Below are positions 7,720 to 41,597 of a stretch of 52,134 nucleotides of DNA, piece after piece. The notes below the pieces were generated by a model. That model was not told where the DNA came from. It made no database searches and saw nothing but the letters and a program-made list of their open reading frames with translations. Source of the stretch: a virus (lineage: Duplodnaviria > Caudoviricetes); the IMG/VR virus record IMGVR_UViG_3300025652_000110, positions 1-52,134 of that record; one strand, 5' to 3'. How positions within the stretch are numbered: the first letter of the stretch is position 1; every line of letters begins with the position of its first letter. The position numbers and the translations under genes are program-made.

Positions 7720-8378
7720 AGATATTTATAGGATATGATCCAGTAGAAGCAATAGCTTTTCATACTTTAGCTCAATCTATTATGAATAAAGCTACTGTAC
7801 CTTTTGAGATTATACCGTTAGATATTAGAAACCTTCCTATGTATACAAGACCAGTAGATCCTAAACAGTCTAATGAGTTTTCATTTACTAGGTTTTTAGT
7901 ACCTTACTTATCTGAATACAAAGGTATATCAATATACTTTGACTGTGACATGATGTTAAGAACAGATATTGCAGAAGTATTACAAGAAGTAAATGATAAA
8001 CCAGTTTATTTAGTTAAACATGATTATATTCCAAAAGATAAATACAAATATATGGGAACTAAACAATACAATTATCCAAGAAAGAACTGGTCATCATTTG
8101 TTGTTTGGAATTGTGGTCATGACTCTAACAAAATAGTTACAGATAGTTTTGTTAATACTGCTAGTGCAGCAGAGTTACATCAGTTTAAATTTCTTAAAGA
8201 TAATGAGATTGGTGAGCTAGATGTTTGTTGGAATTGGTTGGTTGGTGAATATAATAATCCACCAGATGATGTTAAAAATGTACATTGGACTATAGGTGGA
8301 CCATGGTTTACAAAGTACAAAGATGTAGATTTTGCAGATGAATGGTTACAATTAAAAGGTGGAATGAGTAATGTATGA
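7707..8378 (+). CDS. Glycosyltransferase, GT-A fold (GT8-like)
   Basis: IFIGYD, FSFTRFLVP, DxD (DCD), YPRKNWSS, HWTxGGPW motifs. Confidence 0.85.
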   Translation: MGRVKIFIGYDPVEAIAFHTLAQSIMNKATVPFEIIPLDIRNLPMYTRPVDPKQSNEFSFTRFLVPYLSEYKGISIYFDCDMMLRTDIAEVLQEVNDKPVYLVKHDYIPKDKYKYMGTKQYNYPRKNWSSFVVWNCGHDSNKIVTDSFVNTASAAELHQFKFLKDNEIGELDVCWNWLVGEYNNPPDDVKNVHWTIGGPWFTKYKDVDFADEWLQLKGGMSNV

Positions 8379-8811
8379 GATAAAGCAGATTGTTGGAGAA
8401 GATGTTCTCACGAGATACAATGAAATTAAAATAGGAATTGATAAAGCTTTGGACCATTCAAGTGGTGAATGGACTACAGCTGAAATAATTCAACATGTTA
8501 TAGCAGAACCACATTTATTTCAAGTGTGGGAAGTACTAAAAGATAACAAAGCTATAGCATTTAGTACAACACGAGTATTACAATATGAACACTTTCAAGC
8601 GTTACATATTATAACTTTAGGTGGATCAGATATATATACTGAGATTCCTACTTTAATTACTGTGTTTGAAGATATGATTAAGGAGCACGAGAGCATAGAT
8701 GCTCTTGAGTATACAGGCCGTAGAGGTTTTGTAAAACAATTAACTACGGTAGGGTGGATAGAAAAATACACCACAATGCGTAAAAGTCTAAAGGAGAATT
8801 TTGATGTCTAA
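8371..8811 (+). CDS. GNAT-fold virion assembly protein (T7 gp13 position)
   Basis: LHIITLGG...YTGRRGF pattern; directly before the ejection genes. Confidence 0.5.
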   Translation: MYEIKQIVGEDVLTRYNEIKIGIDKALDHSSGEWTTAEIIQHVIAEPHLFQVWEVLKDNKAIAFSTTRVLQYEHFQALHIITLGGSDIYTEIPTLITVFEDMIKEHESIDALEYTGRRGFVKQLTTVGWIEKYTTMRKSLKENFDV

Positions 8812-9514
8812 GATTAAAATCTATGATGGTGTTGTTATTGACATGGCAACAAGCAAGATAGTAGAACAAGGAGATATTAGTTATGTTGACTCTGATCAAG
8901 TTGCATATACGAAAGGTGGTGATAAAACCCAAGTAACAAATACTGGTGTTGCTTCTGAATTTAAACCTCAGATAACGGGAATGCTTAATACTGCCTCAGA
9001 TTTGTATGGATCAGGAAAACTTGGCGCTGTTGCAGGATTCACTCCTGAACAACTAGCGGCCCAACAACAAGCTAAAGTATTAGCCGGCAATCAAATAGGT
9101 TTAGAGGGCGATCTCGCTACTCTAGCAAAGCAACCTGTTAATTTGTCTGGTATGAGAACAGCTGCAACTCAACAAGCACAACAAGCCTTAGGCTTAAATG
9201 CAATGGGCGCAGGTCGAGCTGGTGGTTTAGGTGGATCAAGACAGTACTTAAATCAAACAGGTATTCAAAACGATCTTGCTGCTAAATTTGCCGGCATTGA
9301 CTTGCAGCAACAACAAGCTCAATTTGGTAACATGCAGAATGCATTAGCCGCTCAAGGTGGTGGTGCTAAGACATTGTCACAACTTGGAGCTGCTACACAA
9401 CAGCAAGCTCAGAATGAAGCTGACTCTGCTTATAAAGGTTTACAACAGTACGCTAGTGTATTTGGTACTGCAGCACCTAAAACTACAACAACGACTTCTT
9501 CTGGAGGTAAATAA
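8804..9514 (+). CDS. Ejection / DNA pilot protein
   Basis: Gln/Ala/Gly-rich, VAGFTPEQ and AGGLGGSRQ motifs, no Cys seen. Confidence 0.65.
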   Translation: MSKIKIYDGVVIDMATSKIVEQGDISYVDSDQVAYTKGGDKTQVTNTGVASEFKPQITGMLNTASDLYGSGKLGAVAGFTPEQLAAQQQAKVLAGNQIGLEGDLATLAKQPVNLSGMRTAATQQAQQALGLNAMGAGRAGGLGGSRQYLNQTGIQNDLAAKFAGIDLQQQQAQFGNMQNALAAQGGGAKTLSQLGAATQQQAQNEADSAYKGLQQYASVFGTAAPKTTTTTSSGGK

Positions 9515-10143
9515 TGGCTGTTAGTTATAATGAAGGAAATTTAGCTTATATGAGACAACTTGCTAAACAACAAGGTATTTCTGTAGCTGAGTTAACTAGA
9601 CGAAGAAGATTAGATGAAGAATTTGGTTCACCTGCTTACATAGCTAAAGAAAAACAAAGTTACCAAGATTTTTTAAAAGCTACTGATGGTTATCAAGATC
9701 ATAAAGAACACATGCAAAGAATAGATACTGGATTAGGAACTTTATATCCAGGCGAAGCAGCAGATAGATATCATGCTTCAAAAGATTTAGGATTAACTGC
9801 TGCACATTTAGGTGAATTTGAACCAGTATTTACTGAGAGTGCAAGTGAAGCTGTTCAACATCAAGATACTAGTCATATTGGAGCTGAGGAAAGAGCGGCT
9901 GGTAGTGCTATTGGTAGTGCTGCTGGTGCTATTTTAGGTGGTATAGTAGGAGGTCCTGTTGGAGCTTCTGCTGGAGCTGCTGCTGGTAAAGCAATAGGCG
10001 GTGGTGGTTCAATGACTGATGCCGCAACAGGAGCAATAGGTAGCGGTGGATCTCAATATGCTACTCAAGCTACTAAGAAGAAACCAGGTGACAAACCTGT
10101 TAAAGACGAAATGATGACTAAAATCCAAGGTGTGTTAAATTAA
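9514..10143 (+). CDS. Ejection protein with glycine-zipper segment
   Basis: GSAIGSAAGAILGGIVGGPVGASAG; no Cys seen. Confidence 0.55.
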   Translation: MAVSYNEGNLAYMRQLAKQQGISVAELTRRRRLDEEFGSPAYIAKEKQSYQDFLKATDGYQDHKEHMQRIDTGLGTLYPGEAADRYHASKDLGLTAAHLGEFEPVFTESASEAVQHQDTSHIGAEERAAGSAIGSAAGAILGGIVGGPVGASAGAAAGKAIGGGGSMTDAATGAIGSGGSQYATQATKKKPGDKPVKDEMMTKIQGVLN

Positions 10144-10154
10144 AGGAGGCTATT

Positions 10155-12377
10155 ATGCCAGATAAAAAAGGCCAACTAGGTTGGGAAGACTTAGAAGATT
10201 TTGGTAAATCCTTTTTTCAAGGTCATAGTGACTTTATGAATAAAGCGACGACAGATTTTTATGTTGATCCACCTAAAGAAGAAAAGCCATTAACCCCTTA
10301 CGGGCAAAGTCTTGTAGATAATCTATCTGAATTTGATAAACTAAATCCTTTTGATCCAACAGATTTAGGTTTATACACTGGAACCTCTCCAACTTTAGGC
10401 TTAGAGGCATATAATGAAGGTGTAGATTCAATGCTTGATTTAACTTTTGATGAGAACATTGTATCATCAACACCGTTTGATAATGGAATTACAAATACCT
10501 TAGATCCTCGGTATGAAGCACCAGTAACAGGAAGAAACTTTGATGGTCAAGAGTTTACATATGAAGATACTACTGACACATATGAAAGTGGTTTAGTAAT
10601 TCAAAACGCTACTTCTAAAGTAGGTGATGATGAAGATCAATTTCATATTGATGCTATGAATTATAGAGGTGATGACGAAAAAATGTTAGCGCTTCAAAAG
10701 AGTATAGTATCGAGAAAAGAAAATGGTGATGGTACTGTTACTTATAAATTTAATAACAGTCCTGGTTCTCATATGCAGGAAGCTTTAAGCGATGAGGCTG
10801 TACAAGAACAATCATCAATTGCAGCTGGCGTAGCAGCATTAGAGGCTCAAATATTAAGTATTAAGAATGGTACTTCTTTTGCAGCTCCTGGAGAATTGGA
10901 GCAACTAGAAGCTAAATTAACAGAAGAGAAAGCAAAATTAATAGTAGCAGATGAAGAAGTTTTAAAAGAAGAAGAAAATATTATAAAACAAGAAGAAGAT
11001 ATTGCATTGATTCAAGATGGTGAAACTACTGACGCTCAATTTGAAGCTGCTCCTCCTGCTGATCCAAAAGTTGTAGCTGAACAATCAGAAGAGGAAGCAG
11101 AAAAAAGTAACGCAGAAAAAGATAAGCTTGCTAAAGAATTAGCTAAGATAGATCCAAATGGTAAAGTTGACCAACAAATATTACGTAATCAAGTAGAAAA
11201 AGTAGATAAGTTGTTTACTAGCAAGAGTAAATATGATTGGGTAAATAGTATTAGGGCTTTTTATAAAGAAAATCCTGAGATTGCTACAGCTATAATTAAA
11301 GCTGCATCTAATTATTTACAAACAGGTAAATGGTATACCGCTGCTGCAGCTGGTTTAGAAGGTGCATTGCTTGGTGCTGGCACTAAGATAACTATGGATA
11401 ACAAAGATGCTGCTGACAGAGCAACTCTTAGAAACCAAGGTTATACTGGAGCTTCAGTTAATAAGTTCATGGTTACTAAAAATCCAGAAGATCTTGTATT
11501 AGATTTTACTAAACAAGAAAATGATTATGCTATATATCTTAGAAAGAAAGATATTGAAAATAAAATGGCACAATCTAAATCTTATTTAGAATGGTATCGA
11601 AAACTTACTCCAGCTAATACTGAATGGGCAGAAAAACAAACTGATTGGTTTGTTAATAATGCTAAAGGTATGTATGAAAAAATGGGTGAAGATGGAAAAG
11701 CTTTTGCTGAAATGCAATCTGCTGGCATAGAACACGGTGATGTTATGTCAATGATATTAGATTATGCTCATCAAAAGAAAGATGGAAAATATCTATTACC
11801 AAGAGGTCCTAACGGAGAGTACGATTTAAAACAAATACCAACAGAAGTTTTTAGAGATATGCAAAATATTGTTGAAAACTTTTCAAGACAACAATATAGA
11901 AATTATCAGATTAATGGTAAAGTTTTAGATACTAACTTTAACTTTGCTAATTACTATGATGAATATAAACTTCATACTAGTTTAGTTAATAACGATGCTG
12001 ATAATAACTTTGATCCTATTATGTTTCAAAGCTATACTAATAACCCAGAAGACGGTGAGTTTGCTGGTGAAGCAATGATGGCTGGTAGTAGTAATATTGT
12101 TGATCAAATATTTCAAGGTAAATTTGACACAAAAATAGATGGCAAGACTATGAAGCCTGAGAAAGAACAGGTATGGAAACAACTTGCTATTCAATGGGGT
12201 GCTTTGTCTCCAGAAGATAAAGAGGTTTGGAATAAAGCAGCTTTAGAAGAAGATGATATTGCAACAACTGGATTTTTATTTTTTGCAAATCAGTTAATAA
12301 CTGTAGGTGAAGGTCATGAATGGATGGCAAGTCGCAATATAAAATTATTTCAAGATCCAAATAGAGAAAACAAGTAA
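10155..12377 (+). CDS. Internal virion (ejection) protein
   Basis: 740 aa, acidic/helical, no Cys seen, position. Confidence 0.6.
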   Translation: MPDKKGQLGWEDLEDFGKSFFQGHSDFMNKATTDFYVDPPKEEKPLTPYGQSLVDNLSEFDKLNPFDPTDLGLYTGTSPTLGLEAYNEGVDSMLDLTFDENIVSSTPFDNGITNTLDPRYEAPVTGRNFDGQEFTYEDTTDTYESGLVIQNATSKVGDDEDQFHIDAMNYRGDDEKMLALQKSIVSRKENGDGTVTYKFNNSPGSHMQEALSDEAVQEQSSIAAGVAALEAQILSIKNGTSFAAPGELEQLEAKLTEEKAKLIVADEEVLKEEENIIKQEEDIALIQDGETTDAQFEAAPPADPKVVAEQSEEEAEKSNAEKDKLAKELAKIDPNGKVDQQILRNQVEKVDKLFTSKSKYDWVNSIRAFYKENPEIATAIIKAASNYLQTGKWYTAAAAGLEGALLGAGTKITMDNKDAADRATLRNQGYTGASVNKFMVTKNPEDLVLDFTKQENDYAIYLRKKDIENKMAQSKSYLEWYRKLTPANTEWAEKQTDWFVNNAKGMYEKMGEDGKAFAEMQSAGIEHGDVMSMILDYAHQKKDGKYLLPRGPNGEYDLKQIPTEVFRDMQNIVENFSRQQYRNYQINGKVLDTNFNFANYYDEYKLHTSLVNNDADNNFDPIMFQSYTNNPEDGEFAGEAMMAGSSNIVDQIFQGKFDTKIDGKTMKPEKEQVWKQLAIQWGALSPEDKEVWNKAALEEDDIATTGFLFFANQLITVGEGHEWMASRNIKLFQDPNRENK

Positions 12378-12393
12378 TTACTAGGAGAAATTT

Positions 12394-15300
12394 ATGGCTA
12401 TAGGACCTATTAAAATAGTTCTGCCGCAAAGTAAAGCACCTTCATTTGATATGACTGGGTTTGTAAATGCCGGTATGTATCAACAGATGTATGTAGACGA
12501 CGATGAAGAGCCTCGTGATTTTCGTTGGGAAGATGGTGACACTGTTTATGATGCTACTTCAGATGAGGGTTATAGATTCCTTGGTATGGATGCTCTTGAA
12601 ACTGATCACATAGGTCACTCTCCAAAACAAGGATTTAAATCTGGTGAGTATGGTGGTGACCTTCAAAAAAGAAAGTTTTATGAGTTAGCAAAGAAGTTAG
12701 GTTATAACAGACTCGTTAGAACAGGAAAAAAAGATGAACACAATAGATGGTTAACTGACTTGCAAAACGCGAATGGTGAATCATTTTCTACTTCTTTATT
12801 TTCTAACGATCTACTAACACCAAATAGATGGACCTCTGAAAGAGATAGAGATGCTTACGAAAGTAAACACTTCAACAGCTTGATGGGTATTGATACAACA
12901 ACAAATGAATGGGGTAAAGCAAAGTCTGAAATTGACGATCATTTTTCTAAAGGACTTTTGCTTGATAAGTTTGGAAGTCCATACATTAAAAAAGAAGCAT
13001 TAAATGAATGGCAATTAAACGAAGCTCAAATTAATTCTGAAATATATGGAATAGTAAATCCTTATCTTGATAGTTCAGTTAAGTATCGTCATGATGGTAT
13101 GGACCTACAAGGTAATGCTACTAACGTTTGGCGTAGTAGCCTTAGTCAGGGTTGGCAGAGTATGAGTGAAGCAGCTTCAGGAGCTAAGTCTTTAATTGGA
13201 AGTTTAATTGGTAATCAAGACTGGTACGAATCAGGAATGCTTACTGCTGAAGCAAAAGAAAACACAATGCGAAGGCTTCCTAAATTTGTTCAAAATATTG
13301 ATGACGTAGAATTTGGAGACAACGCTGCTGAATATATTATAGGTTTAGGCGGTGTGTCAATACCTTGGATGTTAGGTATCATTGGTGGAGGAGTTGTTGG
13401 TACTTTAGCTGTTGGAGCTGGAGCTACTGGTATTGCTGCTGCAGTTGGAGCTACAATAGGTACTACTCCTTTAGCTGCACTTTATGCTGGTGAAATCTTT
13501 AACAATATGGAAGGAGATATAAATAGCAAAAGCACTAAGGTAGCTTTATCTGGTGGTGTTATTATGTCAGTGTTAGATAGACTAGGTTTAAAAGGTATTA
13601 TGAGACCATCTCAAGTTATGGCAAAAGATGGAATGAAACAATTAAAAGCTCAGTTTACTAAGAAAAAGATTGATGAGATAGAGGCAGATCCAGGTTATGC
13701 TAAGCTTACTCAAGCAGAAAAGACTGCTAGAAAAGCAGAAGCTCTAAAGCAAGTTGACATACAAATCAATGCTGCAAAACTTTCAGGTGTTAATGACATT
13801 GTTAAAGCTATGGCTGGTCATGCTGATATACAAATTAAGAAAAGCTTATTGCTTAAAGAGTTTGGACAAGGCATGATGAAAGGTGGTCTATGGGAAATGG
13901 GAACCGAATCATTACAAGAAAGTACTAGTTATATTGCATCTGCATTTGGATCTGAAGCTGATTTTGATTGGAATGAATTTAAAAATATAGCAAAGAATGC
14001 TGCAGCTGGTGGTTTCTTAATGGGTTCTACAATTGGTGGAACTATGAGTGGCACAAGTGGATATGGATCTATTAAGAAGATGCAATCAGATTATGGCATG
14101 GCAACAAGTGATGCTGCATCTGGATTTTTTAATTATGCTCAAGATAAAGATGGTAATACTTTAGGTAATGCTGTGTCAGCTAATGGTCACGTTTATCCTA
14201 AGCCTATGACTGAAGAACAGTTTAATAATTCTGATCAGCGAGGTAATACTTGGGAACCTAAGTTAGTTGATGTTGAAGAGATTAATGAAGAAATGTTACA
14301 ACACTCTGATGTTAATACTTCAGAAGCACAAAGACAAGTTGATGAACAAGTTAAACTTGGAGAAGGTAAAGGTATTGAAAATGAAGATGGAGTTGTAGTT
14401 GGTAAGCTATCTCTATGGGAGAAGGCAAAGAAACTACCACGCCAAGCTTTCCAGAAGTATGGATCTATTATTGCTACAAAGAACTTGCAAGATCCAGATT
14501 TAAATGGAACTGCTAAGAGATATCTGTCTGCATTACTTCAAACATTTTCTCCTGCTAATATTGGTTTAGCGGCAGGTGTTGGTTTTCAAAAGATTAAAGG
14601 TAGATTAACTGAAGGCTATATGCAAGAAGCTAATAATCTTAAGTTAGCTTTGTTAAATACTGTTGATCATACTAATACAGCAAAAGGTAGAGCTGCTGCA
14701 ACTGAGAAGTTTAAACAGTTTGTAGATAGTAAAAGAGCCGTCCAACGAGGAGAGAAAACCGAGCAACAACATCGTCAACAGTTTGGACAGATGACAGCTA
14801 GGTTAGATCAGATTCATAACAGGATGGAAAGACTTACTGATGCTTTAAGAGATACAGTTAATAATAGTGTTGATGATATGAAAGATATTGGTAGAGTTGA
14901 AGATTGGTTTTTTAATTCTGCTAAACTAGATACATCATTAGTTTTAAAAGGTAAAGGTAGATTTATATCTGCGCTGCAAAGAGATTGGACTAATCCTAGA
15001 ACTGGTCAGGTTCATAAAGGTTTAAGCAAAGAAGCTGCTGAAAAGTTATATAACAGGTTAGTGTTTGATGGTAGAAGTCAAGAAGAAATTATTGATGATA
15101 TGTACCATGAGACTAAAGGAGCTGGTGCTGCAAAACAAAGGACACTAAATATTAATGATAATCCTATGATGCAGGAGTTTTTACACACAGATCATTTTGG
15201 AAAGTTAGAAACTAATATACATGACATGATTAACTATGCTATGGATATGAAATACCTAGGTCGTAATGATGTAAAACTAAATCAGATGATTCTTACTACT

Positions 15301-16803
15301 ATGAACCATATGAAGAAAGATGGTAAGTGGGATGCTAATATAGCAGCGACAGTTAGAAATTCTGTTGATACTCAAAGAGGTAGATACAAAGCTATTAAGA
15401 GTCAAGCACTTAAGAAAGCTCAGGACAATGTAACTTTCTTTAATACACTTACTCAACTAGATACTTCAATGCTAGCGTCACTACCTGAGTTAGCGTTGGT
15501 TATGGTTGGTGCTGCTTATAACAAAGGTTTAATTAATGTTATAAGACAAGGAGCTAGTGATGTTTTTAAACATTATGCTGGAACAGCTAGAACATCTAAG
15601 ATGAGATTCAAAGGCGCTAGTATGACAGATCCTGATTTAAAGGATGTCATGCCTACTCCTAGAATACTTAGACAATTTGATGGTAAGAAAATAGATAGTA
15701 AAAAAGATATTACTATTGAAGATATCAATATGAATAGATTAACCTTCTATGGTGGGCAATACGGAACACCTCATCATGGTGTACTTGGTGCTGTTGATAT
15801 TGATGCATCTGCTTATCAAGCCTCAAGGTTTAAACTATGGGTATTAGAATCATTCTTTCGTATGAATGGTCTTAAGTTCTTAACTGATGGTGCAAGGGTT
15901 GCACGTCTTGCTATAGCTAATGATGCTATTTTTAATGATTTAGAAATAATTCAGGGCTTTTATACTCCTGGAAAACTAAATAGTAATTTAGCTAATGATG
16001 CTTTTGAAAGATTAAGAGAATTAAATATCGATCCTATAAAAGCTGCAAGACAATTTGAAAAAGTAAATCAAGAAATTAAACTACTTCAGCAAAAGAAGAC
16101 TAAAGGTTTTCTTCCTGAAGATGGTGGTAAGTTAGACAGTAAAATCTTGCATGAGTATATATTTAAAAATCATGCTGAGCTTTACAATACTTTAGAAGAT
16201 GCTAGAATATCTTTTGTTGATAATGCGTTAGCAAGACCAACATCGATTGATAGACCTTTATGGTATTCTAATCCTCATTTTAGATTGCTTACTCAATATC
16301 AAGGTTTCTTATCTACGTTTACTGCTCATATAATACCTAAGCTATATAAGAGAGCTAAGAAAGCAGATCCAACACTTAGGTATCAAACTTTTGCTGTTGC
16401 TGCTACAATGTTAGCTCTTGCTTTTCTTGGTCAAGAAGCTAAAGATCAATGGAAGTTTGGTCATCATAGTCCTTATGTTGATACTAATCTTAAGACAGCT
16501 CAGCGAGGATTAAGTGCTTCTGGTTTATTAGGTACTGGACATAGGTTATTAGACTTTGTTCACCCAATATATACTAGTAGTCCAAGATATAATGAGACTG
16601 CGTTTGATCAGATGGGTAGATTTTTTGGTCATTCACTTGATGAGTTTGGTGGACCTACTGGTGGTACAATTAAAAATGCTCAACGCATAGCTGAAAATCT
16701 TATTGAGGGAAAACCTTCAACAGCTATTTATTATGGTAAAAATTGGATACCACTAATTGGTAGACATATGAAAGGTGACAAGCCTTATGAAATAGTATTT
16801 TAA
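12394..16803 (+). CDS. Large internal virion protein with N-terminal SNase-like domain and Gly/Ala membrane segment
   Basis: EDGDT...RFLGMDALET...KDEHNRWL; hydrophobic GxxxG stretch at about aa 315-365; no Cys seen. Confidence 0.7.
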   Translation: MAIGPIKIVLPQSKAPSFDMTGFVNAGMYQQMYVDDDEEPRDFRWEDGDTVYDATSDEGYRFLGMDALETDHIGHSPKQGFKSGEYGGDLQKRKFYELAKKLGYNRLVRTGKKDEHNRWLTDLQNANGESFSTSLFSNDLLTPNRWTSERDRDAYESKHFNSLMGIDTTTNEWGKAKSEIDDHFSKGLLLDKFGSPYIKKEALNEWQLNEAQINSEIYGIVNPYLDSSVKYRHDGMDLQGNATNVWRSSLSQGWQSMSEAASGAKSLIGSLIGNQDWYESGMLTAEAKENTMRRLPKFVQNIDDVEFGDNAAEYIIGLGGVSIPWMLGIIGGGVVGTLAVGAGATGIAAAVGATIGTTPLAALYAGEIFNNMEGDINSKSTKVALSGGVIMSVLDRLGLKGIMRPSQVMAKDGMKQLKAQFTKKKIDEIEADPGYAKLTQAEKTARKAEALKQVDIQINAAKLSGVNDIVKAMAGHADIQIKKSLLLKEFGQGMMKGGLWEMGTESLQESTSYIASAFGSEADFDWNEFKNIAKNAAAGGFLMGSTIGGTMSGTSGYGSIKKMQSDYGMATSDAASGFFNYAQDKDGNTLGNAVSANGHVYPKPMTEEQFNNSDQRGNTWEPKLVDVEEINEEMLQHSDVNTSEAQRQVDEQVKLGEGKGIENEDGVVVGKLSLWEKAKKLPRQAFQKYGSIIATKNLQDPDLNGTAKRYLSALLQTFSPANIGLAAGVGFQKIKGRLTEGYMQEANNLKLALLNTVDHTNTAKGRAAATEKFKQFVDSKRAVQRGEKTEQQHRQQFGQMTARLDQIHNRMERLTDALRDTVNNSVDDMKDIGRVEDWFFNSAKLDTSLVLKGKGRFISALQRDWTNPRTGQVHKGLSKEAAEKLYNRLVFDGRSQEEIIDDMYHETKGAGAAKQRTLNINDNPMMQEFLHTDHFGKLETNIHDMINYAMDMKYLGRNDVKLNQMILTTMNHMKKDGKWDANIAATVRNSVDTQRGRYKAIKSQALKKAQDNVTFFNTLTQLDTSMLASLPELALVMVGAAYNKGLINVIRQGASDVFKHYAGTARTSKMRFKGASMTDPDLKDVMPTPRILRQFDGKKIDSKKDITIEDINMNRLTFYGGQYGTPHHGVLGAVDIDASAYQASRFKLWVLESFFRMNGLKFLTDGARVARLAIANDAIFNDLEIIQGFYTPGKLNSNLANDAFERLRELNIDPIKAARQFEKVNQEIKLLQQKKTKGFLPEDGGKLDSKILHEYIFKNHAELYNTLEDARISFVDNALARPTSIDRPLWYSNPHFRLLTQYQGFLSTFTAHIIPKLYKRAKKADPTLRYQTFAVAATMLALAFLGQEAKDQWKFGHHSPYVDTNLKTAQRGLSASGLLGTGHRLLDFVHPIYTSSPRYNETAFDQMGRFFGHSLDEFGGPTGGTIKNAQRIAENLIEGKPSTAIYYGKNWIPLIGRHMKGDKPYEIVF

Positions 16804-16817
16804 TATAGGAGATATGT

Positions 16818-19800
16818 ATGGCTAAGAGTGGTGGTTACAAAAGCTCAGCTAACACAAAGAAAGATTTAAAGAAAGCTCAATTTGATATGTCAGGTGTATT
16901 TTTTGAAGCGCCTACTGTCAGAGAACAATCTAATATTGTAAGAAAACAACAAGCTTATGGTCAGAATCTAGACCAAAAGAGTGAAATGGAAATGCAGATA
17001 GCTCAAAAAGAAGCTGAGGTTGCTGGATTACAAAGAGCTCAACAAGGTCAAAACGTTTCAAGTGAAGATCAATTAAGAGGTCGTAAGTCTAGACTTGAGT
17101 TGCAAATGCTCAATCAAAATTATAATAAACTTAATGAAGGTTTATTAGATGATGTATATGGAGGAACCCAAGACACTGTTGGTGAAATGGGTTCTCCAAT
17201 TGTCGATAATACAGTTGAACCTGTACCTACAATTACACCTCAAAGAGAGTTCCCTACTCCTGAACAGGCTGTAGGAACCACGACAACGCCCGAGATCAGA
17301 CCTTTAGGCACAGGCCCTGCTGCTACTATTGGTGGTGGAGATACTAACGTATCAAGTGCTGCAATAATAAATGCCATAATGAACAAGCCAGAAGAGGATA
17401 GAACTCCTGCTGAATGGCAAGTGCTTGCTGATCTTGCTCCTGAAGTTTATGATAGTAATCAAGCAGCTGATCGTGAGACTGTTGATGATGATCCAGATAG
17501 TCCAGACAGACCAGGAAAAATTAGTAAAGTTCAAATACCTTATCAACAAAAAATGCAATTGATGCATGACAGTCATGCGATGGGTAGAAGAGTTGAAGAA
17601 CTCTTAGATCAATTTGCTTATGATGATATGGGTAGTGCAGAAAGAAGGCAAGAGATGATGAGACGTATCAATGATGGTACGTTTGAAGTAGAATCTGTTG
17701 CTGATTTCTTTGAAGGTATATTAGCTACTCATGAGGAATTAAAAAGATTAGGTGCACCTAGTGCTTTATCTGATGTTGCTTTACATTCTGTCTTACACCA
17801 AGTAAGAGAGGCTTATAAAAGAATAGGAGAACCTGACGATAGAAGAGGTAGACAACAAGCAATTGATGAATCTAATATAGCACCTACAACAGAAGAAGAA
17901 GCTGCAACAGCTCTTGTTATGCGAGGGCATGAGGTTCGTGAAATAGGTAATAAGATATTAGAAGCAATGGGAGTTAAGCCTGATGCTAATAATGTTAACT
18001 CTACTATAGCTGGAACAATAGCTAGAGACCTAGTTGTCAGAGCATTTCCTAATTTGTTTGTGAAAGATCTTAAAGGTAATATTCAAATATCACAAGACGG
18101 TTTGACAGTAGCAGAAAAAATGTTACCAATGACTCAAACAATTTTGCCACATACAAAAAACAATGTTAGGTTAAATAAAAAACCTAATGCAAGTAGTACT
18201 GTTAAACCTAGATCAGGAGCTAAGTTAAGACGAACTGCTACTGGAGCTGCTACTGATATTGACTATGGAAACTATGATTTAGTAAATGATACAATAGATA
18301 TTCTTGATAATATAGGATATACAATTGATCAAGATATGGTTAACATTGTTAATGCTTTAACCCAATCAATGGATGCTAATGGAAATACTAACATTGACAA
18401 ACTTATTGGTACAGGAAAAGAAGACACTGGTACATTAAATGATAGATCTGGATCTCGTAAAAAGAAAGATCCTAAAACTGGCAGAGATATTATAGGTCCT
18501 GACGGAGAACCAGTAATGGAATGGTATGCTGGAGATCGAATCAAAGATGTTATCTTTAACGACAATATGGATTGGGCTCAAAATCTAGGTAATAATGTTT
18601 TTTATTACGATCATTTTTTAGGCGATAACAATAGATTTTATATATCTCAATTCACTGGTAACTATCACAGTCATAAGCTTGTTAGAGCTATGATTATGAG
18701 TGATCGTATTGAAATGTTTAGTGTTGATAATGAAGCTTCATTAAACGAACTCAAAGCTGGTATTGTTAAAAAGTTTGGACATAATGTTGGGGTTGCTGAA
18801 GCAGCAAGAATATTTGATGCTAATGCTAAAGCATGGTCTGATATGATTATGAAAGTCAGAGAAGACGGTCAACCTATAATTGATTTAGCTGCAAAAGAAG
18901 ATGGATGGGATAGTGTAAGTGCTATGGTTGAAGCAACAAAACTTCATCAACACTTAGAAGGTTTAAAGAACGGTACAAAGACTGATCCAATATACACAAC
19001 TAAGTTTATGACTCATGTTGATGGAACAGGAAATGGACTTGCTCATAATGCTATGCAATCCGGTGATTTTAAAACAGCTGCTTTAACTAATATCAATCCA
19101 AGATTTAATGCACCTGAAGGTGAAGCTAGAATGCATTGGGATTCAGCTAATCCTTTGAACAGTGATGTGTACCATCTTACTGGTTCGGGTATGACAGCTC
19201 AAGTTGAGAAGAATCAAAGTGCATCATCTGCATTTGTTAAGCAAGCTATTGTTGCTTTAGGTCTTGATGATAAAAGAAACATGAGACAATTTTCTAAAGC
19301 TCCACTAATGATATTTCAGTATGGAGCAGGTAGAGCGCTTATTAAAAAGATTGTTAAAGAAAATATATTAATAGCGCTTGAAGAAGATGCTGCTACAGCT
19401 GCTGCATTTAATCAAATTGTTCTTGATATGGGAGGTAATGCTTTAAGTCAGAGTGAAATTAAACAAGCTATTAAAGATGGAGTGTTTGAGGATTCTGGTC
19501 AATTCAGAGACGCAGACTTTATTATCGACCAAATGGGAGATATGATGGTTAAGTCTGTTGAGACTCAATTTCCTATGCTTAAGAAATTAAGTAACATATT
19601 ATCTTCTATGGCTAATGCTGCTGCATTACATAATCCACCTATTGATTTATCAGTTATTACTATTGGTGGTCATAGGTTAAATTTTGGTTTGGCTAATTGG
19701 GAAACAGATAGACTTAGATCTTTTATAGATGAGACAAGTGGTTTAGATTTTAGTCCTGCTCAAAAGATATTGTATCCTCAAGGTACAAAAGTCTATATGA

Positions 19801-20438
19801 AAAATAAGGCTACAGGTAAAAACATTTCTGTTAAAAATACTAGCGGACATTTAATGCCTAATCCTAATTTCAATCCTGAGTTTCCAGTACATGATATAAA
19901 AAATCCTAAGTATGTACCTCTTGGTAGTCTTAAATCTGCAACACAAGCTGCAGTACTTATGACTCACTCATTAGACGGTATCAATGTTGCTCGATCTTTA
20001 GGTGCTTGGAATCAGGACAAACGTCATATGAGTATAGCTCAAATCTTTGATGGATTTTTAGTAAGCCCTAAGCACGCTCGTGAGTTTGCTGCAAGGTTAA
20101 ATAAAGACTTTTTAGATATACACCTTGATAAAGGCGGTAGATTTAGAACTACTGGAGACTTCATGAAAGATTTAACTGATGTTGAAAAATTTCAACCAGG
20201 TCAATCTCATTATGATTTCTTATCTAACAATCCTGCTAATAGTAATGTTCTATTAATATATAGAGCAATGGCTCAAAAAGGTTTTAATTGGGATGACTAT
20301 AAAGGCAAAGGTCTTATCAAGTTAATCAAAGAGTTTGAGGCAGATAGAAAGAAATTTAGAAAACAATTTATGATAGACTTCAAGAAAACTGATTCTGAAT
20401 ACAATTATAAAGCTGTTAAACAATTCTTTTGGGATTAA
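16818..20438 (+). CDS. Putative virion-packaged single-subunit RNA polymerase (N4 mini-vRNAP-like)
   Basis: Motif A VDGTGNG, motif B RQFSKAPLMIFQYGAG, THSLDG, motif C QIFDG, aromatic C-terminus FFWD; no Cys. Confidence 0.85.
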   Translation: MAKSGGYKSSANTKKDLKKAQFDMSGVFFEAPTVREQSNIVRKQQAYGQNLDQKSEMEMQIAQKEAEVAGLQRAQQGQNVSSEDQLRGRKSRLELQMLNQNYNKLNEGLLDDVYGGTQDTVGEMGSPIVDNTVEPVPTITPQREFPTPEQAVGTTTTPEIRPLGTGPAATIGGGDTNVSSAAIINAIMNKPEEDRTPAEWQVLADLAPEVYDSNQAADRETVDDDPDSPDRPGKISKVQIPYQQKMQLMHDSHAMGRRVEELLDQFAYDDMGSAERRQEMMRRINDGTFEVESVADFFEGILATHEELKRLGAPSALSDVALHSVLHQVREAYKRIGEPDDRRGRQQAIDESNIAPTTEEEAATALVMRGHEVREIGNKILEAMGVKPDANNVNSTIAGTIARDLVVRAFPNLFVKDLKGNIQISQDGLTVAEKMLPMTQTILPHTKNNVRLNKKPNASSTVKPRSGAKLRRTATGAATDIDYGNYDLVNDTIDILDNIGYTIDQDMVNIVNALTQSMDANGNTNIDKLIGTGKEDTGTLNDRSGSRKKKDPKTGRDIIGPDGEPVMEWYAGDRIKDVIFNDNMDWAQNLGNNVFYYDHFLGDNNRFYISQFTGNYHSHKLVRAMIMSDRIEMFSVDNEASLNELKAGIVKKFGHNVGVAEAARIFDANAKAWSDMIMKVREDGQPIIDLAAKEDGWDSVSAMVEATKLHQHLEGLKNGTKTDPIYTTKFMTHVDGTGNGLAHNAMQSGDFKTAALTNINPRFNAPEGEARMHWDSANPLNSDVYHLTGSGMTAQVEKNQSASSAFVKQAIVALGLDDKRNMRQFSKAPLMIFQYGAGRALIKKIVKENILIALEEDAATAAAFNQIVLDMGGNALSQSEIKQAIKDGVFEDSGQFRDADFIIDQMGDMMVKSVETQFPMLKKLSNILSSMANAAALHNPPIDLSVITIGGHRLNFGLANWETDRLRSFIDETSGLDFSPAQKILYPQGTKVYMKNKATGKNISVKNTSGHLMPNPNFNPEFPVHDIKNPKYVPLGSLKSATQAAVLMTHSLDGINVARSLGAWNQDKRHMSIAQIFDGFLVSPKHAREFAARLNKDFLDIHLDKGGRFRTTGDFMKDLTDVEKFQPGQSHYDFLSNNPANSNVLLIYRAMAQKGFNWDDYKGKGLIKLIKEFEADRKKFRKQFMIDFKKTDSEYNYKAVKQFFWD

Positions 20439-20488
20439 AAAAAAATACCTACACCGGTCATTACGACTAGTGTAGGTTATTTTTTTTT
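20437..20488. terminator. Bidirectional intrinsic terminator between the convergent arms
   Basis: A9 tract, stem ACCTACAC..GGTC/GACT..GTGTAGGT, T9 tract. Confidence 0.85.
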
Positions 20489-20557
20489 ACTATTGCTGTG
20501 TTACTTGCACCAATGGTATTTACTATTGCTGTGTTACTTGCACCAATGGTATTTACT
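20486..20557. repeat. Perfect 33-bp tandem repeat (2 copies plus 6 bp)
   Basis: tttactattgctgtgttacttgcaccaatggta at 20486-20518 and 20519-20551. Confidence 0.95.
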
Positions 20558-20849
20558 TGTTTGCTAAATAATGCTTCATAGCCTTATCAACTGCAGCTCG
20601 TTTCTTAGCCGCTGTGATCGTAGCTTTCTTGACAGCATCTTCTTGAGACATTCCTTGTTGCATTAATACTTTACTATCTTCTTCCATATTTAATATCTGA
20701 ATTTGATCAGCAACATATGTATGAACATCTGTTAAATCTTCTGGTACGTCAGGATCTGTACCACCTTTTAAGATAGCTACTGCTTCTAATAACTCAGCAT
20801 CAGTAGTATCTGCATCCCTTAGGATGTTAGTATCTTCGGCTCTTGCCAT
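20553..20849 (-). CDS. Hypothetical protein
   Basis: GGAG RBS; last gene of the - arm. Confidence 0.7.
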   Translation of the reverse strand: MARAEDTNILRDADTTDAELLEAVAILKGGTDPDVPEDLTDVHTYVADQIQILNMEEDSKVLMQQGMSQEDAVKKATITAAKKRAAVDKAMKHYLANK

Positions 20850-21013
20850 TCTGATTTCTCCTTTTCATTTACACTATCCATGTAGCTTATCAAACCTTGG
20901 ACAGGGTGTGTATCATTATCTAATTCAAATGGACCATATTCTATAACCCATGTTGATTTCTCATGGTCAGTATCATCGACCACTGTAAACATTGCTTTGC
21001 ATGTTGCCATCAC
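20819..21013 (-). CDS. Hypothetical protein
   Basis: Coupled overlap with neighbours. Confidence 0.55.
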   Translation of the reverse strand: MMATCKAMFTVVDDTDHEKSTWVIEYGPFELDNDTHPVQGLISYMDSVNEKEKSEWQEPKILTS

Positions 21014-21285
21014 TTATCTCCATCTACTAAGTTGTATCCGTATATTGCCATACTTTTAAGTAAACTTTGTAAAGCTGTCTCAGCAGCCATTGCTAGCTCA
21101 TCTGAAACGTTATCATCTGAAGCTATGCTATGCGCAGCGTTGGTCATTTGCCATAACTGAACACCAATGTTGTGAGCAAAGCTATCTGTTTTATTGGTAC
21201 TTTCTTTAATTGTCATATCTTCTCCATAATTTTTAAGTCTTTCGTTATAATTATCTAACATTTTACTTTTAGTTTCATCAATCAT
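21010..21285 (-). CDS. Hypothetical protein (start re-called at MIDETK)
   Basis: AAGGAG RBS before the ATG at 21285. Confidence 0.65.
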   Translation of the reverse strand: MIDETKSKMLDNYNERLKNYGEDMTIKESTNKTDSFAHNIGVQLWQMTNAAHSIASDDNVSDELAMAAETALQSLLKSMAIYGYNLVDGDK

Positions 21286-21432
21286 AAAGGTATTCTCCTT
21301 ATTTTCTCCAGTCGTTTTTCCAAAGTGGTCTGGTCTTATGATTTTTTTTCTTCTTTTCAGAACGTAATAACATATATAACTCTGCGGTCCTGTCAACTTG
21401 CACAAGACCCCAGGTTATTTTTTTCTTTGAAC

Positions 21433-21534
21433 TTAAAGCCATGAAGCAATCACAGCAGCTACTACTAGTGCTGCAAATATTGCTAAACTCTTATTGTCCT
21501 TTATTGTTGTAAGTATTTTAGTTTTAAGATCCAT
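21433..21534 (-). CDS. 33-aa membrane peptide
   Basis: MDLKTKILTTIKDNKSLAIFAALVVAAVIASWL with GGGG RBS; not in the ORF track. Confidence 0.55.
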   Translation of the reverse strand: MDLKTKILTTIKDNKSLAIFAALVVAAVIASWL

Positions 21535-21543
21535 TAATACCCC

Positions 21544-21786
21544 TTACTTAGATACTTGATCTGTTATATCTTTGTCAAGTAATTTCCAGATAATTCCAGC
21601 AGCAATCAAGCCTGCTAAACCAGCATTACCTAACGTCCATACTATGTTAAGTATAGAACTAATTACATCACCTGTTAAGAAAGCTACCTTCGCACCGAAG
21701 ATTACTTGCAATACAATTGACAAACTAATTAGCTTAATACCTACATCAATCGCAGCGTCCGCTACGTGCTTTATTTTCTCTAACAT
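21544..21786 (-). CDS. Small two-TM membrane protein, possibly host-derived
   Basis: IVLQVIFG...LGNAGLAGLIA; GGAG RBS. Confidence 0.7.
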   Translation of the reverse strand: MLEKIKHVADAAIDVGIKLISLSIVLQVIFGAKVAFLTGDVISSILNIVWTLGNAGLAGLIAAGIIWKLLDKDITDQVSK

Positions 21787-30334: not shown

Positions 30335-32770
30335 TTAACAAAAGAAATAGTCAGAATACATTAACTCTTTTAGATCGAGTTTTCCTTTTCTAGGTTCTGC
30401 TTCTGTAAATAATGGATCATTACTAATAATCTGACTTCTCATATCTTTAAATATATTCTTATCGTATATGTCAATAAATGTTTCTTTTGTTATATGTAGT
30501 AACTCAGGTACTTTTTCAGCATGAACACTAAAACTATCGTGTATAGCACCAAAGGATAGTATGCCTGATTTTTCAAGCTCTACAATAACTAATGACATAT
30601 GTGCTGCATCCATAGAATGCACATAATTAGGACTAATTCCTGATATCATTTCGTGCATTGCTGGACGTGTTGTTTGCTCATGAACAACGACTTGTATCCT
30701 ACCCTGTGTAAATGGTAGTTCTACTTTCTTTTTGTTCATAATCCACTTTTCGGACACACAAGGAAAGCCACTAGGACTCATCCAGCATACCGTATCTTCA
30801 TTTTGTTTGTCTACCCTATGCTTGACTAAGGCTTGTAAGTAATTTTTAATAGAAACAGGACCAGAACAAATTGCATTATAAGTCTGTACAAGATCTTTTG
30901 ACAGCTTTTTAGCTATTGTTTTTGTAATTCCGTACTTTGTAGTCATACCAGCGTCATAGCAGTCCATGTATATGATATCTGCTATACATTTAATACCAGC
31001 ATCATAAGCTTTTGTCATAGTTCCACGTTTACTAATACCTTTTCTGATCAGTTTCATCGGTATTTCTGCTAGTATTTTTCCTAAGTCAGTACCGACATTT
31101 CTATTAAGAATTCCTTTCGCTACGATTATATAAAAGTCAATTGGTTTTTCTTGTTCCATAAGTCCAACCATTCGACCAGCAACTTCATCTTTAGACATTG
31201 CAGCGAGGTGTTGAGTGCCATTAGATGAACCATCAATAGCTATTGGTAACTGTGAATAATGTTCTTCATCAGTTAATAGTGATCCATGATAAGCACATAT
31301 TTCAAAACATATAGATAAGAAAACCCAAGGTTTTTCTGCAGCCATCCAAATGTCTTTTGTTGCTATTGGATCTTCTGCTATATTCCAGAATAATTCAGTA
31401 TTTTCTTCAGACCATTTTTGTCTATCTTCTAATGACATTTTATCTACAGATAAGTCTGGTATACCGTCAACAACAAGATCACTTACATAATTTGTTTTAG
31501 TCCATTCTAACTTTTCTAATTCTTTAATAGTATATGATTGGTTATAACTATTAGCTGCATGTATTAATAAATATTTAAAACCAGTTTCGGTAACTAATTG
31601 TTTTTCTGCGAATTGTAAATGACCTCTTGCTAAGTCATTAGATTGATACGAAAAGTATGGATCTCGTGCATACACTCTACCACGAAAGTCTAAAAACATA
31701 GATAAGTAAAATGTATAAGACGCCCAACCATTAGGACCATGTATACTATTTAATATAGCATGATTGCGAGCTGCTTTTGATTGTGTTGCTAAGCATAATT
31801 GTTTTGCTGTCCACATAAGATTATGTTTGTCAAACAATTTGTTAAGTTTATTAATTTTCCGCAAGCATAATCTCATAGCTTTGCCATCTTTTTTAAGTGT
31901 ATTCTTGCGTTTTTCTTCTTTATTTAAAGCGTCTTCAATTGTCTTAACTGTTGTTGAATTGCCTTTATCAGGTTCAAATAATGATCCATTTCTATATAAT
32001 TTTGTATCTTTATATATTTTATTTATATTTTCTCTACGTATATCTTTTGCATCGAATTCTATTTCTGATCCATCTTCTGTTTCTAATTTAATAATTGTTT
32101 CTGTTAATTTATTTTCAAGTTTTTCACTTATCTTAGCTACGTTAGCATTAACGCACCATTTTACTTTTTCTAATCGATTAACTGCTTTTACATAATCTGA
32201 ATATTGATCTATTTCTTTTATAGAGCTTTTTATTAGTCGATCTTTAATACCATCAACCATTCTAGTATTCTTTCTCCAGGCAGGATATTGATGTCTTGAT
32301 ATACCTATTCTTTCTTTTTCATCTAATACAATATTTCCATATTTGTGAGCCATTTCTAAATGATACGGCTGCAACCTAACTTGTTTCTTCTTACCTTTTT
32401 CCATAATTTCTTCTATTGTAAAGAAAGGTTCTCGTGTTAATATTAAATACTCTTGATCGATAAGTGCATTTAATATTAAACAACCAAGTTTCATTTTAAG
32501 TACTATGTTTGCATTTTCAATTGCTAAATGTTTTACACATATTTCACCAACATTCATATTAGTGTTTGTCAACATTATTTTGCCTTCATGTCTTTGAAAT
32601 GTTGATGTTAAATAATTAAATGTTTCTTTAACTATGTTAACCATTCTAAAGTCGTCACGCAGGCAATTTGCATTTCTTATTTCTTTAACAGCAGAGTTGT
32701 TATTATTACTACTTCCGCTTTGCATTATTCTTTCTTCTATTGACCAAACTATTTCTTGTACGTTATTCAT
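30335..32770 (-). CDS. T7-like single-subunit RNA polymerase
   Basis: LDFRGRVY, IDGSSNGTQH, RKGISKRGTMTKAY, PNYVHSMDAAH, IHDSF, C-terminal YFFC. Confidence 0.95.
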   Translation of the reverse strand: MNNVQEIVWSIEERIMQSGSSNNNNSAVKEIRNANCLRDDFRMVNIVKETFNYLTSTFQRHEGKIMLTNTNMNVGEICVKHLAIENANIVLKMKLGCLILNALIDQEYLILTREPFFTIEEIMEKGKKKQVRLQPYHLEMAHKYGNIVLDEKERIGISRHQYPAWRKNTRMVDGIKDRLIKSSIKEIDQYSDYVKAVNRLEKVKWCVNANVAKISEKLENKLTETIIKLETEDGSEIEFDAKDIRRENINKIYKDTKLYRNGSLFEPDKGNSTTVKTIEDALNKEEKRKNTLKKDGKAMRLCLRKINKLNKLFDKHNLMWTAKQLCLATQSKAARNHAILNSIHGPNGWASYTFYLSMFLDFRGRVYARDPYFSYQSNDLARGHLQFAEKQLVTETGFKYLLIHAANSYNQSYTIKELEKLEWTKTNYVSDLVVDGIPDLSVDKMSLEDRQKWSEENTELFWNIAEDPIATKDIWMAAEKPWVFLSICFEICAYHGSLLTDEEHYSQLPIAIDGSSNGTQHLAAMSKDEVAGRMVGLMEQEKPIDFYIIVAKGILNRNVGTDLGKILAEIPMKLIRKGISKRGTMTKAYDAGIKCIADIIYMDCYDAGMTTKYGITKTIAKKLSKDLVQTYNAICSGPVSIKNYLQALVKHRVDKQNEDTVCWMSPSGFPCVSEKWIMNKKKVELPFTQGRIQVVVHEQTTRPAMHEMISGISPNYVHSMDAAHMSLVIVELEKSGILSFGAIHDSFSVHAEKVPELLHITKETFIDIYDKNIFKDMRSQIISNDPLFTEAEPRKGKLDLKELMYSDYFFC

Positions 32771-41262: not shown

Positions 41263-41308
41263 TTGAATCTCCTTTATTATTATAAGATACTACATGATTG
41301 TAGCATTT

Positions 41309-41368
41309 GAGCTCTTGCTCTAGCTCTTGGCTCTTGATCTAAGCTCCTGTATCTTGCTCGTGATCTTG
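41309..41368. repeat. Degenerate 6-8 bp repeat array (GCTCTTG/GATCTTG)
   Basis: gagctcttgctctagctcttggctcttgatctaagctcctgtatcttgctcgtgatcttg. Confidence 0.7.
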
Positions 41369-41597
41369 GGGGCACTTGAACTATTGCACTAGGCTCTTAC
41401 TATAGATTTAACCCACAGGTGCCAAACATATAAAATTTTAGAAAACACAGAATTATTTAATAAGTATACAGAGCTCTCAACAGAGCCCATTCGTACCAAC
41501 AGGATTGCTACGTAAGAACATACAGGGAAAGCAGTGACCTCGGGGTTGCTACAGTTCTGTATATTTTTTAAATGATTCTAAAAATTAAGGAGGAAGT

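Follow-up and report, generated by a model that had tools for sequence, protein, structure and literature searches.

A compact, cysteine-free, predicted single-subunit RNA polymerase between the T7 and N4 types, encoded among ejection-type genes of a non-N4 marine podovirus

Is the injection of a single-subunit RNA polymerase (RNAP) together with the phage DNA restricted to N4-like phages? A 2026 structural paper, in its available part, describes the virion-packaged single-subunit RNAP as a 'hallmark' of the Schitoviridae, the N4-like phages, to which it is said to be 'unique' (PMC13434306). The question is raised anew by a gene for a protein of 1206 amino acids (aa) in the IMG/VR virus record IMGVR_UViG_3300025652_000110, which was analysed as a whole (52,134 bp, 34.9% G+C, CheckV completeness 90%) and is referred to as the window. 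An earlier note, made from the letters of the DNA, had described the gene product as a cysteine-free protein with all motifs of a single-subunit RNAP, in the order DGTGNG, R-x3-K-x7-YG, HSLDG, IFDG and an aromatic C-terminus; a script found each of them in this order and counted 0 cysteines (Table 1). The analysis makes it probable, though well short of certain, that the protein is an active, DNA-dependent single-subunit RNAP that is packaged and injected, i.e. that an N4-like two-polymerase programme operates in a podovirus outside the N4 group.

The 1206-aa protein matched the Pfam family RNA_pol (PF00940) over residues 692-877 with 31.2 bits (cut-off 22) and the phrog_414 profile 'RNA polymerase' with 8e-12; a PF00940 match is also found in the precomputed annotation of close homologues. 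Sequence-only searches of the PDB with the protein and with the first family profile found no polymerase and, therefore, structures were modelled. The AlphaFold2 (AF2) model based on 11 close relatives was unusable, with a predicted local distance difference test (pLDDT) score of 43. A model of residues 236-1206 based on 44 diverse relatives reached a pLDDT of 82 and a predicted template modelling (pTM) score of 0.83; residues 1-235 were excluded from the family alignments and the structure models, and alignment numbering is shifted by +235. Foldseek gave 74 matches in the PDB at E ≤ 1e-3 and, among the matches listed, 37 of 37 chains were single-subunit RNAPs. The best E-values were obtained with T7-like and mitochondrial enzymes, i.e. 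Rpo41 of yeast mitochondria (1.5e-16; template modelling (TM) score by query 0.43), T7 RNAP (2e-15; 0.44) and human POLRMT (about 1e-13; about 0.46). The N4 mini virion RNA polymerase (mini-vRNAP; 5e-13 and 1.3e-12; 0.46-0.47) was the most similar in sequence among the matches listed (13-14% identity) and, among these, superposed with the lowest root mean square deviation. For the core, TM scores to these four enzymes ranged from 0.41 to 0.47. In the viral library BFVD, T7-like RNAPs and segments of N4-like vRNAPs were found mixed, all with TM scores ≤ 0.50 by query length. A Pfam scan at E ≤ 1 revealed no DNA-polymerase family on the protein. The RNAP fold, for which the earlier note had proposed a comparison with N4 mini-vRNAP and T7 RNAP, was indeed recovered with both, and from fold and family the 1206-aa protein is near certain to be a single-subunit RNAP.

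Across the 44 relatives, which go down to 17% identity, R606, R623, E705, D735, G736 and K827 were invariant, and Y835, G836, D1053 and D1078 were conserved in at least 90% of the sequences. By alignment, the counterparts in T7 RNAP are R425, D537, K631, Y639, G640, D787 and D812, which we take to include the catalytic Asp pair and the Lys and Tyr of motif B. Since the catalytic residues are kept over this range, a dead enzyme is not expected, and the protein is likely to have catalytic RNAP activity.

The mixture of N4-like motifs A and C with a T7-like HSxD, which had been pointed out before, was seen again in a three-way alignment, and the statements on the reference enzymes were correct: N4 gp50 has 3500 aa, its polymerase domain contains EADGVTNG, RGIAKNPLTITIYG and KIFDGM and has no H[ST]xD, and T7 RNAP contains VHSQDG and LIHDSF. 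The window polymerase and the N4 vRNAP have in common the (E)xDGxxNG form of motif A and the FDG of motif C, where T7 RNAP has DGSCSG and HDS, the single-subunit RNAP fold (mini-vRNAP, PDB 2PO4/3C3L), the complete lack of cysteine and a gene among ejection or structural genes. It differs from N4 gp50 in the absence of the giant N- and C-terminal domains, vRNAPs of the N4 type being three-part proteins of about 2800-3800 aa with the RNAP in between, and PF21894, PF21769, PF21867 and PF21624, which are matched by N4 mini-vRNAP, were not found on it at E ≤ 1. With T7 RNAP it has in common the His of HSxD, a motif that reads GTGD in N4, and a second His, which follows motif A. Like T7 RNAP and unlike the N4 enzyme, it ends with aromatic residues, and its architecture is stand-alone with a single set of domains; with T7-like and mitochondrial RNAPs in general, it shares the PF00940 match above cut-off. 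Unlike T7 RNAP, it has an N-terminal extension of 235 aa, and its gene is the last one of the late structural operon, whereas T7-like RNAPs are encoded by early or middle genes.

To place the family as a whole, profiles were compared by hhalign, run locally; the N4-like polymerase domains and the T7-like RNAPs were each represented by an alignment of eight sequences. The family matched the T7-like RNAPs with the strongest score (185.8; probability 99.3%, E 6.4e-21) and the N4-like domains with a score of 135.5 (probability 98.2%, E 2.8e-14) over 875 columns, a count that cannot be set against that obtained with the T7-like RNAPs, since five of those eight sequences are without the N-terminal part. 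The N4-like and T7-like alignments matched each other with a score of 80.6 only (probability 95.3%, E 2.1e-8). Therefore, the family is nearer to both the T7-like RNAPs and the N4 vRNAPs than these are to each other. With single sequences, the family profile matched N4 mini-vRNAP (95.4%, E 2e-8) and T7 RNAP (92.1%, E 6e-7); in the N4 genome it found the vRNAP at 1e-10, and in Roseobacter phage CRP-7 only the T7-like gp30 at 0.003. In a maximum-likelihood tree computed under LG+G4 by a quick search (42 rows, 855 columns), a single branch separated each group from the rest, with Shimodaira-Hasegawa-like approximate likelihood ratio test (SH-aLRT) values of 91 for the family and 100 for both N4 and T7; the family, a clan of its own and distinct from the T7-like RNAPs, had the shortest stem (0.47, compared to 1.42 for N4 and 1.22 for T7). 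The tree is an unrooted trifurcation of three clans with no outgroup and, therefore, we assign neither a direction of descent nor a sister relationship with the N4 vRNAP. The term 'intermediate', used in the earlier note, is thus supported by sequence comparison as a measure of similarity, not of descent.

Next to the 9 relatives with 54-98% identity and one with 26% that were found by a word-indexed search, a second such search with the broad alignment yielded zero additional sequences. An exhaustive profile search of 1.84 billion representatives gave 72 clusters (50% identity) at E ≤ 1e-3, of which 53 also passed 1e-10 and 39 passed 1e-30. The proteins are mostly 1000-1430 aa long; the two of the 72 that exceed 2000 aa are both weak matches. 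All loci are on viral or metagenome contigs, some of them with TARA or marine-metagenome names. No cysteine was present in 68 of the 81 proteins gathered in the family searches and in any of the 44 rows of the broad alignment, and two clear T7-like outliers among the 81 had 14 and 9 cysteines. When three family members were searched by tblastn against 50,697 deposited phage genomes, no match was found at E ≤ 1e-5 and E ≤ 1e-3, respectively; at E ≤ 10, weak polymerase matches appeared, the best of which (0.03) was a gene in a 75-kb Alteromonas phage record with the annotation 'RNA polymerase'. IMG/VR, scanned with the sub-clade that diverges most (A5), gave no match. A compact, stand-alone single-subunit RNAP in a virion module was not found to be described in the literature, the supplements of PMC6918029, PMC10654107 and PMC11445570 not being covered. 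Neither source thus gave a close characterised homologue, in agreement with the earlier suggestion of an undescribed class. Judged by its sequences, the family is previously undescribed, known from metagenomes, diverse, compact and cysteine-free, and it bridges the T7-type and N4-type enzymes.

A metagenome survey of N4-like viruses, as far as its accessible text goes, dropped vRNAP-related proteins of less than 2500 aa and used ExDGxxxG as vRNAP filter motif (PMC10654107). This motif is contained in the family consensus of motif A, TEIDGxxNG, where the window protein reads HVDGTGNG; the compact family would nevertheless escape that survey because of the length limit. Another podovirus outside the N4 group, the Stenotrophomonas phage StenR_269, encodes in its structural module a cysteine-free protein of 2270 aa that has been proposed as putative vRNAP; according to the part of the paper at hand, the proposal is based on the size of the protein, its helical content and the absence of cysteine, with no motif evidence (PMC10747016). 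Membership in the present family was not supported, as the family profile found nothing in the StenR_269 genome at E ≤ 10. In the family member P0029 (1699 aa, from a metagenome), an N-terminal RNase_T-type exonuclease domain (PF00929, 2.4e-18) is fused to the polymerase. In the related contig L054 (10001-14190), the polymerase gene is present in three open reading frames (ORFs) of 443, 520 and 448 aa, which could reflect frameshifts, assembly errors or a decaying copy.

The phage itself is not of the N4 type. The major capsid protein matched SU10_MCP (PF17236) with 2e-80, a family that was present in four of the five genomes compared (the window, the related records G001 and G002 with CheckV completeness of 100% and 92%, and CRP-7) and absent from N4, in agreement with the earlier note, which had called the head genes SU10/P22-type. 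The best match of the portal protein was that of CRP-7 (44% identity). From its predicted proteins, the phage is a CRP-7-like podovirus with an SU10-type capsid and not N4-like. No tRNA and no terminal repeat were found in the window.

The polymerase ORF begins 14 nt after a 1469-aa ORF of the structural operon and is the last plus-strand gene of that operon, facing a convergent replication module on the minus strand; it does close the presumed ejection cluster, as had been noted. Six consecutive ORFs (8371-20438) contain 0 cysteines in 4007 aa. At the rate found in the other listed ORFs of the window (134 cysteines in 11,826 aa, 1.13%), about 13.7 would be expected in the polymerase and about 45 in the block, and the chance of finding none, assuming independence, is about 1e-6 and about 1e-20, respectively. 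The same pattern is seen in N4, where gp50, gp51 and gp52 have 0 cysteines each, and eight out of eight N4-like polymerase domains are cysteine-free, whereas all eight T7-like RNAPs have 6-14. CRP-7 gp33, gp34, gp35 and gp37 are also free of cysteine. In Schitoviridae, suppression of cysteine is conserved in the ejection operon, compared to a frequency of 0.865% in the proteome, and has been linked to passage through the periplasm, as stated in the available part of the paper on phage DEV (PMC11445570). The 1469-aa protein matched phrog_6958, 'virion structural protein', with 3e-15 and CRP-7 gp34 by BLASTP with 1e-18. Searches of the 1469-aa and the 740-aa neighbours against the PDB by phmmer gave no match, and BLAST and hhalign comparisons of the window neighbours with N4 gp51 and gp52 were not significant, the likeness being one of size and cysteine pattern.

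The order of an ORF of ~700 aa, a cysteine-free ORF of 1341-1543 aa, the RNAP gene and convergent replication genes was found in 12 of 12 loci of the close clades, i.e. in every locus with enough upstream sequence. In the 1184-1668-aa clade, all three ORFs are seen in six of the ten loci among those listed; the remaining four contigs are truncated on the upstream side or, in the case of L054, contain a polymerase gene broken into three. The polymerase and its giant neighbour are also connected by their N-termini. When the window was translated in all six frames, the motif F[DN][MT]xG[FV] was found at two sites and no others, namely in the polymerase (16881-16898) and in the 1469-aa protein (12445-12462), near residue 20 in both; in 10 of 10 clade-1 loci it was likewise present in this pair of proteins and nowhere else. 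Two clade-2 loci, which have the same N-termini, contain NINLxxRD in both proteins instead, and in the larger clade other peptides are common to the polymerase and the upstream giant; the motif thus changes jointly between clades. When the N-terminal likeness was compared with 500 shuffles, the observed score was reached by 0-2 shuffles for four of 11 pairs and by 12-36 for five; for the remaining two (176 and 230 shuffles) it was no better than chance. The common motif looks like a targeting or processing signal, a weakly supported suggestion from sequence likeness.

At the position of the polymerase, CRP-7 (L001) encodes gp33 (17859-21566, minus strand), a protein of 1235 aa with 0 cysteines that is annotated as hypothetical. 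By eye, and along the best, non-significant hhalign path, it contains look-alikes of motif A (MMEADARQSNAG), motif B (LYGKTAQ) and motif C (AIHDAL).

The window also encodes an ordinary T7-like RNAP in the replication module (Table 1), and both polymerases were present in eight of the eight records examined (the window, G001, G002 and G003-G007). The studied polymerase diverges much faster than its co-resident: its identity to the copies in G001 and G002 is 54% and 27%, compared to 88% and 60% for the T7-like RNAP. A second, T7-related RNAP is found in N4, too (gp15/gp16), and with it the programme of the window phage would be an N4-like one with two polymerases. In this model, the polymerase would be made late, alongside the structural proteins, packed into the capsid with the adjoining cysteine-free internal proteins and ejected into the host together with the DNA, where it would start the transcription of phage genes without the host RNAP; the separately encoded T7-like RNAP would then take over the later genes. 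The position in the late operon, the cysteine-free block and the N-terminal motif make packaging and injection of the polymerase plausible, and we lean towards it. The gene thus suggests that N4-like phages are not the only ones to inject a polymerase.

Several observations weigh against this model. The polymerase is known here from genes alone and not from proteins of virions or infected cells. Lack of cysteine is not specific, as the tail-fibre-like ORFs (404 and 573 aa) and the scaffold of the window are cysteine-free as well. The 1469-aa protein was considered as a relative of the N- or C-terminal domains of N4 vRNAP or of gp51 and rejected (hhalign probability <1%); since the upstream protein is unlike these, the parallel to N4 lies in the polymerase and the cysteine pattern. 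CRP-7 gp33, from the only cultured relative, gave non-significant results with the polymerase or its profiles by BLASTP, by hhalign (twice) and by an HMM (hidden Markov model) search. The promoters on which an injected enzyme would act did not become apparent: hairpins with a stem of 6 and at least 3 GC pairs occurred 16 times in the window with none recurrent, in contrast to the hairpin promoters of N4, for which this simple scan found no counterpart; no intergenic 10-mer except the ribosome-binding site was found in at least 3 spacers of the window; and a search for repeats in the early region revealed ribosome-binding sites only. Sites resembling sigma-70 promoters were not enriched in the early region (39 observed, 44.7 expected). 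Moreover, a phage with its own T7-like RNAP could, in T7 fashion, use the host RNAP for its early genes.

How else could the gene be explained? An active second RNAP could be made late and used, without being packaged, in the producing cell, e.g. to transcribe a class of late genes or to couple transcription to replication or packaging. Fold and catalytic residues fit this equally well, and the protein being known from genes rather than virions as well as the promoter searches, which yielded no promoter class, speak in its favour. We nevertheless regard it as unlikely: all 44 family members are free of cysteine, in contrast to the 6-14 cysteines of all eight T7-like RNAPs and the 14 of the co-resident enzyme, the gene lies inside a 4007-aa cysteine-free block with homologues of virion proteins, the N-terminal motif is common to the neighbouring giant protein, and a dedicated T7-like RNAP is already present in the genome. 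The location among ejection-type genes and the faster divergence (54%/27% compared to 88%/60%) would also fit an ejection or internal-core protein that is derived from an RNAP and does not polymerise, but serves as part of a DNA-delivery channel or as a DNA clamp; with D735, K827 and R606 invariant and Y835, G836, D1053 and D1078 conserved in at least 90% of 44 sequences, this is quite improbable.

More improbable still is that the gene encodes a missing replicative enzyme, i.e. a primase or DNA polymerase whose right-hand palm fold is related to that of RNAPs. The idea comes from the finding that a family-A DNA polymerase (PF00476) was not found in the window, G001 and G002 (completeness 90-100%), while CRP-7 has one, and the R-x3-K-x7-YG motif is presumably also present in family-A DNA polymerases. 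However, 37 of 37 PDB chains among the matches listed are RNA polymerases, PF00940 was matched and no DNA-polymerase family at E ≤ 1 in the Pfam scan, the arginine of the T/DxxGR motif specific to single-subunit RNAPs is invariant, and a cysteine-free product encoded at this site is what would be expected of a virion protein, not of a replisome component. Replication-type genes that are present in the window or its relatives encode primase, helicase, exonuclease, single-strand DNA-binding protein, RusA, MazG, ThyX and ribonucleotide reductase.

If an injected polymerase is assumed, the strategy would reach abundant marine podoviruses of the CRP-7 type that are unrelated to N4, and the minimal size of an injectable RNAP would come down to about 1000-1200 aa. 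The family would then also be a natural intermediate for tracing the divergence of T7-type and N4-type enzymes and would help to separate the catalytic parts of the N4 giant from its delivery parts. In addition, a small cysteine-free RNAP is a candidate for a new tool enzyme. The published description of CRP-7, in the portion available, names just a T7-like RNAP for that phage (PMC6918029). A far-reaching version of the proposal, which we put forward tentatively and with more doubt than confidence, is that phage single-subunit RNAPs include, besides the T7 and N4 types, a third lineage, old and widely distributed, in which the enzyme is packaged and injected as a free-standing protein and together with the T7-like RNAP frees a large group of marine podoviruses from the host RNAP. 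The family would then be the missing link between T7 and N4, the N4 giant would have arisen by fusion of such an ejected polymerase with ejection domains, and the N-terminal motif would be a signal for capsid targeting or ejection. Packaged polymerases are also proposed, in the descriptions accessible to us, for crAss-like phages and P23-45, with tail-fused 'two-barrel' RNAPs, and for phiKZ with a multisubunit vRNAP. Compared by these descriptions, the strategy would be the same, and we take the folds and architectures of those enzymes to be unrelated to the window polymerase.

Table 1 Features of the polymerase gene and its surroundings in the window
Feature	Position	Strand	Basis or remarks
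Gene for the stand-alone, cysteine-free 1206-aa single-subunit RNAP (P0001)	16818..20438	+	ORF with ATG start, translation, PF00940, AF2, Foldseek
N-terminal extension, residues 1-235, hydrophilic	16818..17522	+	Sequence; no counterpart in T7 RNAP
Polymerase core, residues 236-1206, modelled part	17523..20435	+	AF2 and Foldseek
N-terminal motif FDMSGV, residues 22-27	16881..16898	+	Also in the upstream 1469-aa protein
GDNNR, residues 602-606, counterpart of T/DxxGR	18621..18635	+	Aligns with T7 DWRGR and N4 TRVGR; R606 invariant
Motif A, DGTGNG, residues 735-740	19020..19037	+	D735 invariant; aligns with T7 D537 and N4 D559
Motif B, RQFSKAPLMIFQYG (R-x3-K-x7-YG), residues 823-836	19284..19325	+	K827 invariant; Y835 and G836 at least 90% conserved
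HSLDG, residues 1050-1054	19965..19979	+	His as in T7 HSQD, GTGD in N4; D1053 at least 90% conserved
Motif C, IFDG, residues 1076-1079	20043..20054	+	D1078 at least 90% conserved; FDG as in N4, HDS in T7
Aromatic C-terminus QFFWD, end of protein	20421..20435	+	Compare DFAFA at the end of T7 RNAP
Upstream 1469-aa cysteine-free protein, homologue of CRP-7 gp34, presumed ejection or internal virion protein	12394..16803	+	phrog_6958, BLASTP
Four further cysteine-free ORFs of 146, 237, 209 and 740 aa	8371..12377	+	146-aa and 237-aa proteins resemble CRP-7 gp38 and gp37
Ordinary T7-like RNAP, 811 aa, 14 cysteines, replication module	30335..32770	-	phrog_414 1e-106, PF00940 233 bits

Further observations concern the neighbourhood of the polymerase gene and the remaining genome. 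An N-terminal stretch of the 1469-aa protein, DGDTV...RFLGMDALE, resembles staphylococcal nuclease in what we take to be motifs of that enzyme. Pfam SNase was matched by the orthologues in two of five records, G001 (14300-14575; 20.9 bits, 1.9e-5) and G003 (12602-12859; 14.7 bits), and not by the copies of the window, G004 and CRP-7. Just past the stop codon of the polymerase gene, the convergent spacer of 114 nt contains a perfect tandem duplication of 33 nt (20486-20551), which could serve as a terminator or in packaging, or could mark a genome end. Where the early genes and the terminase operon diverge, the spacer contains a run of short CTCTTG-like repeats in a locally G+C-richer stretch (41290-41380), as read by eye; an origin, a packaging signal or a promoter region may be located there. 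Finally, the two cysteine-free virion ORFs of 404 and 573 aa contain periodic repeats of 30 nt (5265-5594 and 50300-51014), which are typical of fibre proteins.

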